Notes: a model not told the origin generated them from the letters alone. Numbered from the stretch's first letter, positions 30,707-63,026 are shown. The stretch is DNA of 64,000 bases from Flaccisagitta enflata (GCA_965153355.1 OZ231126.1:248001-312000); one strand, 5' to 3'. Program-made: numbers and translations.

Positions 30707-31386
30707 TTGGGCAGCGGCCCCGAAGGGGACGAAGTCCTGTAGAGCACAGGGGGACTTTCGTTCGTCCGTCCGTCCGTTCGTTCGTTCGTCTGTCCCCCCC
30801 CCATCAGGCCCCTCAGGCCTCAAATATGGCCTTTAAGGCCTCAAATTCTGCCTCTCAGGCCTCAAATCCAGCCTCTCAGGCCTCAAATATTTCCTCTCAG
30901 GCCTCAAATCCAACCTCTCAGGCCTCAAACCTGGCCTCTCAAGCCGCAAATTAGGCCTCTCAGCCCTCAATTCCGAATTCTCAGGCCTCAAACCTTGCTT
31001 CTCAGGCCTCAAACTAGGCCTCTCAGGCCTCAAATCAGCCATCTAAGCCTCAATTTATCGCTCTCAGGCTTCAAATCAGTCCTCTGGTTTCAAACCTTAA
31101 TCCAGCTCTCCCAAGCCTCAAGTCAGCCCTCTCAAACTTCCAATTGGCATTCTCAGGCCTTATATCAGCCTTCTTAGACCTCAATTTAGGCTCTTGAAGG
31201 CCTTCAGTCAGCCCTCTATAGCATAACATCCCCTTCTTCAGGCAGGACGAACGAAAGTCCCCCTGTGTTCTACAGGACTTCGTCCCCTTCGGGGCCGCTG
31301 CCCTGCTTCCCCTCCTGCCAATTCACAATCACTCAAAGCAGGGCAACGGGTATCGCTGACCACATATTGCCCTTGGGCGACCTGTT
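30704..31386 (-). mobile_element. HINE-like family B copy interrupting the transposase last exon
   Basis: 5' end AACAGGTCGCCCAAGGGCAATATGTGG; ~55-bp asymmetric subterminal inverted repeats (GGGCAGCGGCCCCGAAGGGGACGAAGTCCTGTAG..); internal 21-bp tandem repeats; inserted in an A-run. Confidence 0.8.
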
Positions 31387-42999: not shown

Positions 43000-44853
43000 T
43001 CTTAGTCCTGTAGAACACAGGGGGACTTTCGTTCATCCGTTTTTTCGTTTGTCCCGCTTTCTTAGGTCTAAAATCTGACCTTTCAGGCCTGAAATCTACC
43101 CTCTCAGGCCTGAAACAGGTCGCCCAAGGGCAATATGTGGTCAGCGATACCCTTTGCCCTTCTTTGAGTGATTGTGAGTTGGAGTGAGGGGAAGCAGGGC
43201 AGCGGCCCCAAAGGGGACGAAGTCCTGTAGAACACAGGGGGACTTTCGTTTGTCCTGCCGAACATGGATGAGATGCTTCAAGAGCTTAAATTGAGGTCTA
43301 AGAAGGCTGATGTAAGGCCTGAGAATGCCAATTGGAAGCTTGAGAGGACTAACTTGAGGCCTAATTTGAGGCATGAGAGGACAGGTTTGAGGCATGGGAA
43401 TTTCGATTTGAGGCCTGCAAGGCCTAATTTGAGGTCTGAAAGGCCAGGTTTGAGGCCTGAGAGGTCGGATTTGAGGCCTGAGAGGCCGGATTTTGAGGCC
43501 TTAGAGGCTGGATTTGAGGCCAGAGTGGCTGGATTTGAGGCCAGAGTGGCTGGATTTGAGGCCTGAGAGGCTGGATTTGAGGCCTGAGAGGCTGGATTTG
43601 AGGCCTGAGAGGCCAGATTTTAGGCCTGAGAGGCCAGATTTTAAACTGAGGGGCCTGATAAGGGGGGGGGACGAACGAACGAAGAACAAACTAACTAACG
43701 AACAAATAACAGGTCGCCCAAGGGCAATACATGGTCAGCGATACCCTTTGCCCTGCTTTGAGTGATTGTGAGTTGGAGTGAGGGGAAGCAGGGCAGCGGC
43801 CCCAAAGGGGACGAAGTTCTGTAGAACACAGGAGGACTTTTGTTTGTCCTGCCTTACGTGGATGATATGCTACATAGAGGGTTGACTGAAGGCCTTCACG
43901 AGCTTAAATTGAGGTCTAAGAAAACTGTAATAAGGCCTGAGAATGCCAATTGGAAGCTTGAGAGGACTAACTTAAGACCTAATTTGAGGCATGAGAGGAC
44001 AGGTTTGAGGCATGGGAATTTCGATTTAACGCCTGCAAGGCCTAATTTAAGGTCCAAAAGGCCAGGTTTGAGGCCTGAGAGGTCGGATTTGGGGCCTGAG
44101 AGGCCGGATTTGAAGCCTGAGAGGCTGAATTTTAGGCCTGAGAGGCCGGATTTGAGGCCTGAGAGGCTGGATTTGAGGCCAGAGAGGCTAGATTTGAGGC
44201 CAGAGAGGCTGGATTTGAGGCCTCAGAGGCTGGATTTGAGGCCTGAGAGGCTGGATTAGAGGCCTGAGAGGCTGGATTTGTGGCCTGAGAGGCTGGATTG
44301 AGGCCTGAGAGGCCAGATTTTAGGCCTGAGGGGGGGACGAACGAACGAACGAACTAACTAACAAACGAACGAAGTCCCCCTATGTTCTACAGGACTTCGT
44401 CCCCATTGGGGCCGCTGCCCAAAAGTCCCCCTGTGTTCCAAAGGACTTCGTCCCCATTGGGGCCGCTGCCCAAAAAGCCCTCTCAGGCCTGAAATTTATC
44501 CTCTCAGGCCTTAAATCTGCCCTCTCAGACCTGTAATCTACACTCTCAGGCCTGAAGTCTGCCCTCTCAGGCCTAAAATATGCCCTCTCAAGCCTTGAAT
44601 ATGCCCTCTCAGGCCTGAAATCTGCCCTCCCAGGCCTGAAATCTGCCCTCACAGATTCAAGGCCTGAGAGGGCAGATTTCAAGCCTGAAGAGGTCTGGGG
44701 GGACAGAGAGATGGATGAACAAAAGTCCCTCTGTGTTCCACAAGACTTCGTCCCCTTCGGGGCCGCTGCCTTGCTTCCTCTCACTCCAATTAACAATCAT
44801 GCAAAGCAGGGCAACGGTTATCGCTGACCACATATTGCCCTTGGGCGACCTGA
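43000..44853. mobile_element. Cluster of nested/tandem HINE-like family B copies
   Basis: Family 5' ends at ~43114 and ~43708 (+) and ~44853 (-); arrays of GGCCTGAGAGGCTGGATTTGA. Confidence 0.78.
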
Positions 44854-45590: not shown

Positions 45591-48500
45591 TATCATGAGG
45601 ATAAAAGAATAACGTTGTAAATAAACTGAGCAAGCTGGTCCTCACTTCAGATTGAAGTGCCAAGACTTATTCAAGCATTTTTTAAATAAAACAAGTCAAT
45701 AAGGAGAAAAATGGAAATTTTTCACCACATGAAACGAATCACAAGCAATGCACAATTATACAATAAATAAATTAATCAGTTCAACTAAAATGGTTAAAAT
45801 TGCACAGAACTTGGTGTGATGTATCTATACTCGACTTGAACAAAGAATCCCTTAATTTCATTCATGAGTCAAAACAGCTTGACAGTTAATCAATTATTCT
45901 TGTTTGTCCCAGTCCAATGCCCTGCTGATCATTAAAATGCCATGATCAAATCATATCACTGTAAAAAATGGTTTTAAAATCAAATATTTTTTTCAAAAAA
46001 TCAACTTGATTTTTATTAAAGAGGGTTTTCAAAACTTTTCAAAATTTAAAGCATGAGAGAAAGTTGAAATTATTTGACACACCTTATTAGGCTCTAACAC
46101 AGTTTATTTTAAATTGTATTCGGTTTTAAATTAAATGAAATGTAAAATATAGCTTTTTCTAGTGCTGCTGGATTTGTAGAACTAAATGAATTTCATGGAA
46201 ATAAAAAAACGATGCTCTGAATTTTCTTTTAAAAAAATTATATCAAGTTTCAAATCTAAGATGATGAGAGTAAGAAAGGAAAAAAAATATATTCATGGGA
46301 GTTGGACAATTTAAAGGGCGATGATTGGCTATGAAAAAATTTAATACATAAACTAGATTTGCTGGAAAAAAGCTGAGAACAAATGTTTTTCTTTGCATAT
46401 ATGACAATTGAGATTCTCTTAGACCTCCAGTTTTTATAAAATTTTGCTTATCTAGTATTTTTAATACTAAATCAATAAAGTATATCAAAGTTTAAGTCTG
46501 ATCGCTTATGTTACTATTAAAGTGTATATGTTTTTTTAATGAAGTATGGAATATGATATTACAAAATTCACAGAGTAAATATGATGCGTTAAAAACTTTC
46601 AAGCCTTTCTGAAGGAAAATGCGAAATTGTTCCATTGAAAAGCACTGAGTCATACAGCACACAAGCTTAGAACGAACTGATTCACATCAAATTTCTTTCA
46701 AGGGAGTGAAATAATCATTTTAAAAACCTCACAAACGAAAAGAAAAATTTCACTAGCGTGATAACAACTTCTCATTGTTCATAAGAAATGATCACGAATT
46801 ATTACGGATGAAGGTCTTATTGTTTACATAACTTCCGTGCAATTGATTTGGTTAAGCACACAATATCACTGTCAGAGTTAATCACAATCTTTTCTCCAAC
46901 CTCTTAAAAATAGACTCCATAGCATATCTCATACTCTTTATTATTCTACTATATCTCATATCAGAGTTCAAAAAAATAAACATGCAAATCAGCTGCATAA
47001 ATCAGCGATACAATATCATTGTCCCTGTTCTCTTTTACATAATGAAAAAAAAACCTAAAATGCAACAAATGATCAAGATAGTAAAAGAGCCATAGGTGAC
47101 AACACAATGAAGCAAGATTAAGAAAAAACTTAATATATATATATATATATATCTATCTGCAAATAATTTCCTCTTACAATATGTATATAGTTCTTTCAGT
47201 ATAATATTATCCAATGAGTGAAAGAGACGCTGGGAGAAAATCTATTGTGGGACTTTGTCAAGAATTTTCTCCAACAATATGATCATCAATTGAAGCGAAG
47301 CAGGACACAAATGTTATATCAATTAGCAAATTGCGGTATACAATCAGATCCGTTGAAAGCAAAAAATGAAAACTGCAGTCGCACCAAATGAATTGAGAGG
47401 AAAGGAGAAAAATAGCGATGGACCTTTGGTTTTTAAGCTTCCAAACTGGATTAAGAAATTTTCAGTGATTCTATTGATATATCTGGACCATGTTGGTAGC
47501 AATCATTTTGGCCAACAAGAACAATATATAATATTTGGTACAGACATTCTATGGGGAAGAATGAACAATTTTCTCATAGCATGTATGTATCAAATACTAT
47601 TCATTTATCAACTTTCCAATAATAGTATGTTTGTGCCGGATATAACTGAATTAGAAGTTGCTCTAGACCAAGATGGTTGCTATTGAGTATCATGATCATA
47701 CTCATTTAGTTTAAAGTTCTCCATTTGTTGCAAACAAGATATTGAAGATATATCTTACTAACAAGTTATATAAATGGAATCCTGGGGTTTGAAAACTTTT
47801 GCATCAATAGCACTGCATCAATACTACTGCATCAAAGGACCATTTATTCTTTTTTGGCAATACTGAATGGAGCCCCAAGAAAAGGCTGGTATAGGCAGGA
47901 TGAAGAAAGTAAACATTGTCGCGTAAAGAAGAGAAACAACCTAGTGAAATAATTGGTAATTTTTTTGTAGTTATAGCCAAAGACAACTCGCGTGTCAATT
48001 GTGTGTAATGTTTTTCAAAGCTACATGACTTAGATATATATATATTTATAGATATCATAGATATTGAGAAGAAACAATAAAAATTTTCGTAGTAAAATGC
48101 AGTTTTGTTGTAAAAATTCCAAAAAGCTTCTTCTTACTTTGAATCATTTAGAAAAAAAGATTAATTTTTTTCATTTCTGTGATGACGCTAGTAAAGTATC
48201 ATAACTATGAGCATATCTCCCCAGGTTGATGCAACCTTCCATCTAATCTTAAAGGTCTAGGTCATCACAGAAATATATCATAATATCCTTTTGGCAATTT
48301 AGTGGAATGATGTATCAAATCTCTTAAGGACATTTACATAATCTATCTCTTGAGGACATATGCATGATTTTTTTTCTTAAAAGGAATTTAATTTGTGATC
48401 TAGATTTCAGTTGAGTAGTGCCACAGAAGAGGAATAGAAAGAGAGAGAGAAAGAGGGAGAGAAAGAGAAAGAGACTGAGAAAGAGCAAAATGGTGAAAAT

Positions 48501-49431
48501 ACTTTAAGCAACTACAAAAGAGTAAGAAATTGACACACAAATTTTTCTTTGTAATCAAAGACTTGGGTGAAGACTGGTCATAAACCGCCTAAGAAAAGCG
48601 GTCACATGTATTTTTCTCAAAATCATGTATATCATATATGCAACAATTTTGAACAATTTTGAAAAAAAAAACAAAAAAAGAATTAAACATAATTAGCACT
48701 TTTTTAAAGGTTTCCTAAAGCTGGAATTTGACCTTTGTGTATTTTCTAAAGTGAATTCTTCACTTGAATTCCCGAAATGTTAGCAAATGGTAGTCCTAAA
48801 AAGCCAAATGAAAGATAACCAGGAAGGTTAACCTTCAAAGTGTGTTCAAAAGAGTCTCTCAGTTTTTTTTTCCCATGAATGGAAATCAAATCAGTGACTA
48901 TAAAAAGTTCTAAAATAATAATGATAATAATAATAAAAAAAAAAATCTGAATGAACTGTTAAAAACCAGTAATTAAAGGTGGACCCATCAGACGGTGAGA
49001 GATTGAGCACCACTCTGAATATATATAAAAGTTGCGCATATTGAAAAAAAAAATTTCCATGTTACTAAATGTATGTCCGTGTACGCAAGTATCAGCCCAA
49101 ATGTACCTAGATCAACTAGCCCATGTGTTCGTGTCAAATAGGCTAAGTACACGAATCAACAAGGCTGTGTACAGGCGTCTAGTTGGATCATATCAAAGAA
49201 TCGAAGATCTTTTTTTAAAAGCTTATCTAGCTACAATTGGGATAAGGTTGGGATGATGGGGGAATTTTTAGCTACTTTGCACAATAAATAAAAGTGATGA
49301 AGCAGAATAAGTCCAGTGATTGTTGAAAATATTTGTTTTTGTAGCTGTTAATATTGTTGTCATTTTGATCATAGGTGGATTGCTACCAATTCCCACTAAA
49401 TCAACAAAATCCCATTCTACCCCCTTCTCTT

Positions 49432-49509
<78 letters not shown>

Positions 49510-49540
49510 TATCAGATCTTTAATTGTCCATATCATTGTA

Positions 49541-49580
49541 TCACATCGTTTTTGTCATGGTCGTTTTTGTCGTCGTTGAT

Positions 49581-49615
<35 letters not shown>

Positions 49616-49858
49616 CGTCATCCTTATCGTGTCATCTTCTTCATCTTGAGAAGCCCACAAAGTCAGAGCATCTTTGCATTCTGAGAGTCTTTTGGCCCAC
49701 TTCCGTCTCGCGTCGACGAGGTGTTTGTCCAGAACCTCCAACGACGCCAAACCGCTTCCGCTTCCGCTTCCGCTACCATCACCGCTTCCGGACGCGGACG
49801 CGGATGCGGACGCGGACGCGGATGCGGACGCGGATGCGACGACAAATCCGATTCCTAG
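49541..49858 (-). other. Candidate stop-codon readthrough extension of KIF1A (105 codons)
   Basis: Stop context TGA-CTAG; the frame stays open to the next TGA at 49543-49541. Confidence 0.55.
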
Positions 49859-50220
49859 TCACGCCGTTGACGAGACGCCTAAACTTGGCGGTGGCGGCGA
49901 AATTGGCGCCGCCGTCATCGTCGACGTCATTCCGGCGACTGCGCTACTACTTCCGGTGGTGTGCCCCCCCGACGGCGTGTTGGACGATGATGGCGTCGTG
50001 GCGGCGGAAGTCGGCGCCGATTTGGTCTTCTTGTTCAATTTTGATCTGATGGTTCCGGCTAGCAAAGGGTTGATGGCGTAGAGCCAATCGTGGATTTCTT
50101 TTTCTCCGAGAGTCTGCAGCAGAAAGCCGCGAGTTTTGGTGCAGATGCTGAAAGTGTTGGCTCCGCGAATGCCGCGCTCTTCGTTGTACTCGATTTGAGC
50201 GGAGGAAAGGTTGATGATGC
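49859..50220 (-). CDS. KIF1A: KIF1A/unc-104 terminal exon (PH domain C-half)
   Basis: [47 protein letters not shown]; stop TGA at 49861-49859. Confidence 0.93.
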
Positions 50221-50433
50221 CTGATGAGTTTGAAGGGAGGGGGGGGGGAGAGAGAGGACATGTGAGTTTGATTGATTCATTCAATTCATAAATGCTCATT
50301 ATATGTTCTCAACAGTAAATCAATAAATCAACAAACCTATCAATCAATCCATCCTAATGAACTGTACAGTGGACAATTGAACTGAGTATGAATGGGAAGC
50401 TGGGGTCAAGAAACCTCATAAAGAATGAGAGGA

Positions 50434-50636: not shown

Positions 50637-50932
50637 CTCGTTCTAAAGGATCTTTCTCGTTGTTGTAAAGGAACAAATAGGGTCTCCGTACGACGACCCA
50701 TCTCTTGACCCAACCGTTGGTCGACTCGTCAAGGAAGTGCAGGAATCCTTTGCGCGAAATGGCCGGCGAGACGCGGATCTCCTCCGCATCCGGCACGTAC
50801 AGCAACATCATCGCGGGATCGTCGTGATTGTGATGATGATGATGATTGTTGTGATGGTGATTGTGATGATGGTTACCGGAAGTCGCCGATGACGTCATCA
50901 TTCCGCCTCCAGCATTTCCCAGATTCCTCGAC
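50637..50932 (-). CDS. KIF1A: KIF1A/unc-104 exon (PH domain N-half)
   Basis: [54 protein letters not shown]; phase 2-1. Confidence 0.93.
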
Positions 50933-56375: not shown

Positions 56376-59221
56376 GGTAGGTATAAGGCCTAATTTTTCC
56401 AAATTCATGTCAGTGACCATTCATGGCTCTTTTTCACCCGAAAGTGTCTCTGGGGTGGGGTTTTTGAAGGTTTCAGACATTTTTGGCCCAAAAAAATAAA
56501 ATTGACCATGTTGAATTCATGAATTTTTAAGGGGAGAAATTAGCGAGATTTTTGGCACCTTTGTTTTATGCAGTTGGTCCCTTGAAATACTTACAAAAAT
56601 GGTTAAAAATGCTTAAAAAGTGCCAAGAACCTACCACGCATGTTGTATGTACTTATGAAAACAACAAAAAGCCGCGAGTCTACAGACAGAATCGCGAGTC
56701 TACAGACGGAATCGCGAGTCTACAGATGGAATCGCGAGTCTATGCACGGAATCCCGAATCTATGCACGGAATCGCAAGTCTACAGACGGAATCGCAAGTC
56801 TACAGACGGAACACGAGTCTACAGACGGAACGCGATTCTGCAGACAGACAAGCCTACAGACAGAATTGCGAGTCTACAGACGGAATCGCGAGTCTACAGA
56901 CGGAATCGCGAGTCTACAGACGGAATGGCGAGTCTACCAACGGAATGACGAATTTACAGACGGAATAGCGAGTCTACAGACGGAATGGCAAGTCTACAGA
57001 CGGAATGACGAATCTACAGACGGTATGGCGAGTCTACAGACAGAATGGCGAGTCTACAGACGGAATGGCGAGCCTACAGACGGAATGACAAATCTACAGA
57101 CAGAATCGCGAGTCTACAGACGGAATAGCGAGTCTACAGACGGAATCGCAAGTCTACAGACGGAATCGCGAGTCTACAGACGGAATGGCGAGTCTACAGA
57201 CGGAATGGCGAGTCTACAGACGGAATGGCGAGTCTACAGACGGAATGGCGAGTCTACAGACGGAATCGCGAGTCCACAGACGTAATCGCGAGTCTACAGA
57301 CGGAATTGCGAGTCTACAGACGTAATCGCGAGTCTACAGACATAATCGCGAGTCTACAGACATAATCGCGAGTCTACAGACGTAATCGCGAGTCTACAGA
57401 CGTAATCGCGAGTCTACAGACGTAATCGCGAGTCTACAGACGTAATCGCGAGTCTACAGACGGAATCGCGAGTCTACAGACGGAATCGCGAGTCTACAGA
57501 CGGAATCGCGAGTCTACAGACGGAATCGCGAGTCTACAGACGGAATCGCGAGTCTACAGACGGAATCGCGAGTCTACAGACGGAATCGCGAGTCTACAGA
57601 CGGAATCGCGAGTTTACAGACGGAATCGCGAGTCTACAGACGGAATCGCGAGTCTACAGACGGAATCGCGAGTCTACAGACGGAATCGCGAGTCTACAGA
57701 CGGAATCGCGAGTCTACAGACGGAATCGCGAGTCTACAGACGGAATCGCGAGTCTACAGGCGGAATCGCGAGTCTACAGACGGAATCGCGAGTCTACAGA
57801 CGGAATCGCGAGTCTACAGACGGAATCGCGAGTCTACAGATGGAATCGCGAGTCTACAGACGGAATCGCGAGTCTACAGACGGAATCGCGAGTCTACAGA
57901 CGGAATCGCGAGTCTACAGACGGAATCGCGAGTCTACAGACGGAATCGCGAGTCTACAGACGGAATCGCGAGTCTACAGATGGAATCGCGAGTCTACAGA
58001 CGGAATCGCGAGTCTACAGACGGAATCGCGAGTCTACAGACGGAATCGCGAGTCTACAGACGGAACCGCACAGTTGATTATTTCATTCATGTTAAGTGAA
58101 GTAGCTTATGCGGTTAACCAAACAACGCGAAAGAAAACTACGGAAAATCGAGCAGATAGAGTCTTCTTAATATCATTCGTGAGGCCGCGTGGGGCTGATC
58201 TCAAGTTTCGGAAAGGTCTCATTTGAAAGAAAAAACAAAACTGCATCTATTGAGCCCATATGCATCAAAGTTCATATTCGCATATTGCCGTAACAAGTTA
58301 GGAAAGCAAGAAAAGAGGAAAAACAATATCTTGTTCTCATAGTTGGCTTTCAAAACTTACACCAATCGATAGCTCGTGTCGTCAGCATTCAGAATCATAC
58401 TTTCCTTGGTTCATATAAACATTTTTAACCGTTTTTGGAGTTTTGCAAGGGAAGATCCAAAATGGTTCCATTCCGTTTTTGGGCAGCGGCCCCGGAGGGG
58501 CCGATGACCTATGATTCCACATAGGGCAATTTTCTCCGGTTTCCGTGTGTCCGTCTGTCTGTCCGTCCCCCCCCCCCGAAACCTCAAACCAGGCTTCTCA
58601 GGCCTAAAATCAAGCCTCTCAGACCCAAAATCAGGGCTCTCAGACCCAAAATCAGGCTTTCCAGGCCTCAAATTAAGCCTCTCAGACCTCAAATTAGACC
58701 TTTGAGACCCTAGATTGGACCTCTCAGACCACAAATTAAGCCTCTCAGATCCAAAATCAAGCCTCAGATCCAAAATGAAGCCTCTCAAACCTCGATGTAG
58801 GCCTTTCAGACCCCCAGTCAAGCCTCTCAGACCCCAAATCTGGCCTCTCCAGCCAAAAAGCAGACCTCATATTCCCTAAATCAGACCTCCAAGACCCATA
58901 ATCAGACATCTTAGCCCCCAAAATCAGCTTCTCAAACCTTCATTTGTTCATGTCCCCTCCACCCAAGCACAATTCACTCTTCTCAGCTCTGGCCTCAAAT
59001 GAGGCCCATTGGTCAACAAACAGAAAATGAAAACTGGAGAAAATTGCCCTATGTGGAATCATAGGTCATCGGCCCCTCCGGGGCCGCTGCCCCTCTCAAC
59101 GTCTCATCCTTACATACACCAACATAGGGGCATCGGGTACCGCTGACCATGTAACGCTTTTGCGACTATTCTGCTCTCTAGCGACATTTTTGCGACTCGA
59201 AGAATTAGGGCCTTTACCTAC
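56376..59221. mobile_element. TTAA-target non-autonomous element (Kolobok-like ends) carrying a 20-bp satellite
   Basis: TTAA at 56372-75 and 59222-25; imperfect TIRs GGTAGGTATAAGGCCTAATT / AATTAGGGCCTTTACCTAC. Joined flanks match the uninterrupted duplicate at ~56000-56125. Confidence 0.75.
56673..58065. repeat. 20-bp tandem satellite CGGAATCGCGAGTCTACAGA, about 69 units
   Basis: Head-to-tail units with no spacers; more diverged on the left, near-homogeneous on the right. Confidence 0.97.
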
Positions 59222-62332: not shown

Positions 62333-62842
62333 ACACACACACTCCAAAAAAACAAACAAACAAACAAACAGACAAACAAACAAGCAGACAAGCAAGCACG
62401 CAGACAAACAAAGACCCATCATTACCTTGCTTGAGCACAAACCTTCCAAAGCCTGGTTGATCGTGAATATCATCCACGCTAACAGGCAAATAATCTCCAA
62501 TTGGCGCCAAATCGCAAATTTCTAACCATACAAACAGACAAAGCAACAAACAAACAAACAAACAAACAAACAAACAAACAAACAAACAAACAAACAAACA
62601 AACAAACAAACAAACAAACAAACAAACAAACAAACAAACACACAAATGAACAAACAAACATTACCTTGCTTGAGCATAAACCTTCCAATGCCTGGTTGAT
62701 CGTGAATATCATCCACGCTAACAGGCAAATAATCTCCATTTGGCGCCAATTCGCAAATTTCGAACCATACAAACAGACAAAGCAACAAACAAACAAACAA
62801 ACAAACAAACACACAAATGAACAAACAAACACATATCATTAC

Positions 62843-63026
62843 CTTGCTTGAGCATAAACCTTCCAATGCCTGGTTGATCGTGAATATCATCCACGCTAAC
62901 AGGCAAATAATCTCCATTTGGCGCCAACTCGCATATTTCGAACCAAATCATTAAATCGTATTTGGAATGAAGAGACGCCGGACGACCCGTGAACTGCGGC
63001 AAAACACCGAACTTGGGCGAAGGCAC
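62843..63026 (-). CDS. KIF1A: KIF1A/unc-104 exon (DUF3694 start)
   Basis: [29 protein letters not shown]; acceptor cttag|, donor G|GTAATG (phase 1). Confidence 0.9.

Follow-up and report, generated by a model that had tools for sequence, protein, structure and literature searches.

Possible stop-codon readthrough at a UGA-CUAG termination site of a kinesin-3 (KIF1A/unc-104) gene in Flaccisagitta enflata

The locus described here raises the question of whether some ribosomes pass the stop codon of a kinesin-3 gene and, if they do, whether the extended protein that would result has been selected for a function. It is situated in a stretch of 64,000 nt from Flaccisagitta enflata (GCA_965153355.1 OZ231126.1:248001-312000; referred to as the window, with positions counted from its first letter), whose minus strand carries the 3' part of a KIF1A/unc-104 gene. 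In axons, synaptic-vesicle precursors are transported mainly by KIF1A/unc-104, which attaches to the cargo membrane through its C-terminal PH domain. An initial annotation of the window, made from the sequence alone, had singled out the stop codon of this gene, a TGA immediately followed by CTAG, together with the 105 in-frame codons behind it as a candidate for programmed readthrough; the position of the motif as well as the coordinates and the translation of the extension are as it described them (Table 1). Judging from the behavior of the same context in other eukaryotes, readthrough of at least 1% is probable at this UGA. A minor isoform with 106 additional residues after the PH domain could alter cargo binding, autoinhibition, or turnover.

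Table 1. Features of the kinesin-3 stop codon region, with positions in the window.
Feature	Position	Strand	Basis or remark
Last coding exon, kinesin-3 (KIF1A/unc-104)	49862..50220	-	PH-domain C-terminal half and tail ending ...SSTA
Annotated stop TGA (UGA)	49859..49861	-	Sequence; tail variants of three relatives end here
CTAG directly 3' of the stop	49855..49858	-	Local sequence GCG UGA CUAGGA
Candidate readthrough extension, in-frame, 105 sense codons	49544..49858	-	Translation
Imperfect hairpin, ~36 bp	49752..49833	-	(GCGUCC)n array paired with (GGAAGC)n array
Non-repeat core, 40 codons (LASLEV...DEEDD)	49631..49750	-	Predicted helical if translated
Thr/Met-rich tail of ACG/ATG trinucleotide repeats	49544..49630	-	Translation, repeat finder
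Second in-frame stop TGA	49541..49543	-	Sequence, translation
ATTAAA, possible polyadenylation signal	49519..49524	-	17 nt past the second stop; use inferred
(GA)35/(TC)35 dinucleotide microsatellite	49435..49505	.	AT-rich, non-exon-like DNA begins here

The gene is a kinesin-3 of the KIF1A/unc-104 type, as is evident from the C-terminal PH domain and from relatives with KIF1A-type stalk domains. The best matches of the last exon, which follows an acceptor AG at 50222-50221 on the minus strand, are KIF1A/unc-104 proteins containing PF00225, PF00498, PF12473, PF12423, PF16183, and PF00169, and the exon itself matches PF00169 with an E-value of 0.012, under the Pfam cut-off for this half-domain. 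A crab KIF1A and the related protein P0298, used as tblastn queries, placed about the last 650 residues of the protein at positions 63995-49862, and the motor domain falls outside the window. Identity to the proteins of named animals does not exceed 57%, over a 228-residue exon. Three related variants from marine transcript assemblies (P0240/P0300, P0298, and P0301) have a PH domain identical to that of the window, and two of these spliced, transcript-derived sequences (P0240 and P0298) join the upstream exon exactly at the exon start at 50220. The PH domain is followed by a low-complexity tail of 60 residues rich in Ser, Thr, Ala, and Pro; in decapod KIF1A the protein ends about 22 residues past the domain. 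The tails of the related variants are highly variable, yet they end in ...TA where the window ends in ...SSTA, with Ala at codon -1 in all four tail variants (the window and the three relatives). Since three other tail variants end at this same position, the stop codon is genuine, and its position appears to be conserved at the protein level. Large indels separate the window from its relatives in two low-complexity parts, the tail behind the PH domain (49862-50041) and a His/Asn-rich run preceding it (50817-50873, minus strand).

Transcript evidence for the region consisted of 12 RNA-library matches, with small shares of query words, and one raw-read run; four runs were aligned. A contig of 266 nt (X3) spans positions 49847-50118 colinearly across the stop codon, with nine substitutions and four indels, each of them a multiple of three in length; this contig ends only 12-14 letters beyond the stop, and five of its nine substitutions are listed, so that it attests to colinearity across the stop but not directly to the letters of the codon in that relative. 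The core of the extension is covered by a 193-nt contig (X1; 49633-49783, three substitutions and six gap letters), and another contig (X2) covers 50045-50214. No splice-like joints were reported in the RNA-library contigs, only slips within the hexamer repeat. An apparently high depth at 49789-49850 in X1-X3 was traced to unrelated contigs that share the GC-rich hexamer repeat and show loose ends and partial fits, and the poly(A) RNA raw reads (X13) contributed six reads, all partial and with at most 95% identity, which are uninformative on the gene. The segment behind the stop is present in RNA libraries, as any 3' untranslated region (3'UTR) would be. These data bear on a further possibility, which is highly improbable: that alternative splicing gives access to the segment, or that the stop is spurious owing to a base-call error, to a recent nonsense mutation, or to a reading of UGA as selenocysteine. 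The very thin RNA coverage would be compatible with rare spliced forms, and the spanning contig ends close to the stop, but the two contigs at 49847-50118 and 49633-49783 align colinearly to the genome, and no pyrimidine-rich acceptor like that of the last intron is evident by eye in the extension. An error or a recent nonsense mutation is unlikely because the three related tail variants, which are independent of each other, terminate at the same place. A reading of the UGA as selenocysteine was rejected, as no SECIS element was among the seven Rfam matches (E <= 1) in 46500-50300, none of which reached its own gathering score.

The last exon ends in ...ACG GCG TGA, so that an Ala codon and a purine (G at nucleotide -1) stand directly before the stop, and the resulting GCG-UGA-CUAGGA is the strongest known leaky context. 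The initial annotation had already recognized the UGA-CUAG signal, which is matched exactly. Loughran et al. (2014; PMC4132726) report UGA-CUAG as common to four efficiently read-through mammalian genes and give readthrough values of 1.5% for UGA-CUA alone, about 3.5% for MDH1, and about 31% for OPRL1, whose context is GCA UGA CUAGGC; a purine at -1 is described as favored. The same core signal is reported for a range of vertebrate genes (OPRL1, OPRK1, AQP4, and MAPK10; MDH1, LDHB, and VDR), and the present site resembles OPRL1 in its Ala codon at -1, the GG or GA after the motif, the in-frame extension, and the neuronal function of the gene. In the vertebrate genes 12 nt past the stop reportedly sufficed and no structure was required, whereas the extension found here is much longer (105 codons) and consists mostly of microsatellite sequence. 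A further difference is that the vertebrate cases are backed by reporter measurements and by a motif and a coding signature that are conserved across vertebrates. The short UGA-CU(A) context is also shared with readthrough that generates peroxisomal isoforms (MDH1, LDHB, and fungal enzymes), but the extensions described there are short and end in a PTS1 signal, which the present extension lacks. As UGA-CU(A) was active both in a fungus and in human cells according to Stiebler et al. (2014; PMC4207609), its effect is not lineage-specific. A preprint by Toledano et al. (2026; 10.64898/2026.07.14.738498) reports that 764 of 765 mutations at positions +1 to +4 lowered readthrough, that only the effects within the -3 to +4 window were transferable from gene to gene, and that modulating positions extend to +27. 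In Drosophila, a 2026 preprint on the readthrough landscape (PMC13278127) describes CUAG in a smaller subset of readthrough genes, extensions that tend to be disordered, and a peak of conservation around the stop.

By analogy with these systems, the CUAG following a UGA in the ribosomal A site would weaken its recognition by eRF1, and a near-cognate tRNA (Trp, Arg, or Cys) would decode the UGA in a small share of rounds. Ribosomes that have read through would translate a further 105 codons before reaching the next TGA, and the protein would gain, after its PH domain, a flexible (AS)8/(SG)4 linker, a helical stretch of about 37 residues, and an end rich in Thr and Met.

A narrower claim contained within this reading is that readthrough is programmed, i.e., that the extension has been selected as a functional minor motor isoform, rather than being tolerated as a by-product, and that its ratio to the shorter form is set by the UGA-CUAG context and perhaps by a downstream hairpin. 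This claim is possible, though less likely than not. The predicted extension is arranged as seven residues, (AS)8, GSGDG, (SG)4, the 40-residue core, and the Thr/Met-rich tail with the C-terminal end ...TKTM. Tandem Repeats Finder identified periods of 3, 6, 12, 15, and 18 within it, and the period of each of the three repeat arrays inside the frame is divisible by three. Exon-like composition ends at the next in-frame stop, as the G + C content is 0.55 in the extension and 0.54 in the coding exons of the gene, and 0.30-0.36 past 49540. The retention of ...STA, with Ala at -1, in all four tail variants beside a highly variable tail resembles the conservation peak reported for Drosophila (PMC13278127). 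Met/Thr motifs encoded by ATG/ACG occur in frame both in the tail of the extension (49544-49630) and in the canonical tail (49900-49925; ...MTSTMT...), which could reflect one microsatellite family or coincidence.

The codon usage of the non-repeat core was assessed by a log-odds score of in-frame against out-of-frame codons, trained on 700 codons from the exons of the gene. The core scored +7.8 in the readthrough frame, whereas the two alternative frames gave -6.6 and -8.3, so that its codon usage resembles that of the exons in the readthrough frame alone. When each exon was left out in turn, 45 of 48 coding windows had a positive score that was highest in the coding frame, with a median of 7.9, and 19 of 344 GC-matched non-coding windows scored at least as high as the core. 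In a second test, stops were dropped from the model and only open windows served as controls; the score of the core was reached by 77/859 of these on the minus strand and 61/1085 on the plus strand, by 30/508 and 39/711, respectively, of those that were not of low complexity, and by 57% of 95 coding windows. This result is suggestive, at roughly p 0.06-0.09 for a single gene (about 700 codons) and overlapping control windows. Structure prediction by AlphaFold2 without an alignment placed a helix at residues 37-73 of the extension (pLDDT 86-94 for residues 41-70) and predicted residues 1-36 to be disordered.

Two complementary microsatellites in the extension, (GCGUCC)n encoding (AS)8 and (GGAAGC)n encoding (SG)4, form the arms of the hairpin. 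That the TCCGC repeats could pair with the GCGGA repeats downstream of them had been anticipated in the initial annotation, and folding indeed yielded a strong hairpin with a minimum free energy of -54.8 kcal/mol against -35.7 +/- 3.2 for shuffled sequences (z = -5.98; 0 of 200 shuffles as good); in a 162-nt context the z-score was -2.99. The arms are 41 nt long and 76% complementary, with repeat periods of 6 and 18. This stability would fit a programmed event, and a stable hairpin downstream of UGA is likewise found in 3' stem-loop readthrough (Drosophila hdc and kelch, the candidate ACP2, and viral elements). Counted from the U of UGA, however, the first paired position is +29/+30, which corresponds to a spacer of 25 nt, and the arms are two complementary microsatellites and not a unique structure. 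Viral readthrough elements are located about 8 nt from the stop. The ACP2 stem-loop is reported to start 6 nt after the stop (PMC4132726). The stable hairpin itself was thus confirmed, but it starts farther from the stop than about 6-10 nt and does not match the 6-8 nt spacing of known stimulators. The hairpin may nevertheless modulate readthrough. A weak local RNA stem takes in the stop codon. An assignment of the hairpin to mir-3960 was rejected, as this Rfam match scored 26.5 bits, below the family's gathering threshold of 73.

According to a different explanation, which is rather doubtful, termination is efficient and the sequence behind the stop is an ordinary 3'UTR. The combination of TGA-CTAG with an open frame would then be coincidental and have been picked out by a searching reader, and the GC-rich DNA with its many repeats would belong to the untranslated portion of a GC-rich last exon whose end is near ATTAAA. 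A series of results favors this explanation and weighs against a selected extension. TGACTAG is present six times in the window against 6.05 copies expected, i.e., at the chance rate and without enrichment. A positive PhyloCSF signal in the extension is reported for only four of 23 human UGA-CUAG genes (PMC4132726), most of which thus carry no coding signature there, and the presence of the motif is therefore not enough for readthrough to be programmed. In dinucleotide-preserving shuffles all 105 codons stayed open in 110 of 5000 cases, and the 51 non-repeat codons alone did so in 455 of 5000 (2-9% of shuffles). On the plus strand, frame 2 contains no stop across the whole segment and frame 1 a single one, and the hexamer and ACG repeats have no stop in most frames. 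The open frame emphasized in the initial annotation therefore exists, but its length is not statistically unusual, and taken alone it indicates only weakly more than chance. Similarly, the repeats do keep the frame, as had been pointed out, but such periods are common in the non-coding DNA of the window: the best period is a multiple of three in 45 of the 108 tandem arrays elsewhere in it.

As for composition, the exon-like G + C content of the segment was confirmed, but its boundary also fits the end of the transcript because ATTAAA, the first AWTAAA on the minus strand after the first stop (49524-49519), follows shortly behind the second stop. If this signal is used, the candidate extension makes up almost the whole 3'UTR. 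Dispersed GC-rich tandem repeats with a unit of 21 bp (also 42 or 63 bp) are located at 13390-13647, 30803-31085, 43344-43641, 44023-44654, and 58581-58938. Because repeats of this type create many GC-rich islands of non-coding satellite DNA, GC-richness is no marker of coding sequence here. Open frame, repeat periods, and composition thus each have a neutral explanation. The Thr/Met-rich tail is not coding-like in the readthrough frame, since its score is -0.2 there against +13.2 in frame 2. A helix is predicted in the core, but the amphipathic character that had been ascribed to it is unsupported: among 5000 residue shuffles, 1207 equalled or exceeded the maximal hydrophobic moment over 18 residues (0.458), and the other frames, when translated, gave values of 0.20-0.48. 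What speaks against an ordinary 3'UTR is that fully efficient termination would be an exception, because UGA-CU(A)(G) alone raised readthrough in every system described in the studies cited above, with values in the percent range from a fungus to human cells. In addition, the codon usage of the core lies above that of about 91-94% of the open GC-matched non-coding windows.

Homology searches were in line with the 3'UTR explanation. A phmmer search with the 50-residue core against 1,835,955,588 representative proteins retrieved no true homologue; its sole match (P0122; E 3.5e-4) is a protein kinase in which a motif of about 23 residues (LDKHL...W.KRL) is repeated three times, and was judged to be due to chance. 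With the read-through protein as query, 126 of the 7999 scored candidates had E <= 0.001, and among the KIF1A matches listed (120 of the 126) none reaches the extension, as the maximum query coverage is 42%. Scans of metagenome contigs with the last exon and with the core found no relative, and no other copy of the core was detected within the window. Assignments of the extension to two Pfam families were rejected because the scores were below threshold, with 17.3 bits for MST (cut-off 27) and 12.8 bits for Serglycin (cut-off 30).

The phylogenetic position of the gene also matters for programmed readthrough, since Jungreis et al. (2016; PMC5100048) describe functional readthrough as abundant within the Pancrustacea, in insects and a single crustacean, but not beyond this group. 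A maximum-likelihood tree was calculated from 27 hand-picked representative rows with the C-terminal 720 residues of each. In this tree, the arthropod KIF1A clade (12 rows) is supported at 100/100 without the window, which thus falls outside the Pancrustacea and whose branch is placed without resolution among lophotrochozoans and chordates. Because this branch is long (1.31), a long-branch error is possible. A precedent within the gene family is unc-104-RD of D. melanogaster, which is listed as a readthrough candidate by evolutionary signatures (Supplemental Data S1, PMC5100048); there, too, the stop is TGA and readthrough is predicted after the C-terminus of the PH domain. The fly extension comprises 12 codons behind TGA-G, with a PhyloCSF signature across 12 flies and a stop that is not orthologous in Anopheles, whereas the window has 105 codons, a CTAG context, no detectable similarity to the fly extension, and a position outside the arthropod clade. 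Because the two differ in length, context, sequence, and clade, the present site would be an independent case and not the fly feature. A literature search yielded no report of KIF1A readthrough with a C-terminal extension, the matches for unc-104 readthrough being unrelated by title and abstract, and the main text of PMC13278127 names neither unc-104 nor kinesin.

Conservation of the extension would make it the second readthrough case in the unc-104/KIF1A family, independent of the fly candidate; it would also represent UGA-CUAG readthrough in an invertebrate lineage with few known cases, and would offer a test of microsatellite-built hairpins as modulators of readthrough. If it is not conserved, the site would be one of a handful of chance TGA-CTAG stops per genome, relevant only as a likely source of extended protein at a low level. 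The most specific version of programmed readthrough, a selected extended kinesin-3 isoform outside the arthropods that is produced via UGA-CUAG and in which the hexamer microsatellites have a dual role, is unlikely. The microsatellites would then act as the (AS)n/(SG)n linker in the protein and as a 36-bp hairpin in the RNA, and repeat slippage would vary the length of the hairpin, which could tune the passage of the stop or the progress of ribosomes. Such an isoform would place a conserved helix after the cargo-binding PH domain, and its origin would be independent of the 12-codon Drosophila case.

The plus strand of the segment has open frames of 224 and 143 amino acids, but an antisense gene was rejected by inspection, as these frames are low-complexity translations of the same repeats. 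An intron of the KIF1A gene contains a 20-bp minisatellite of about 70 copies (56673-58069), which is open in several plus-strand frames and gives rise to spurious open reading frames of 200-266 amino acids. Farther upstream in the gene, the exon at 62841-63026 (minus strand) encodes a protein sequence 100% identical to P0298 and has partial copies at 62663-62776 (95% identity) and 62424-62537 (82%). Exon and copies sit in a tandem array with a period of 178 (62394-63026), and the partial copies may represent pseudo-exons or else alternative exons that are used in a mutually exclusive manner.

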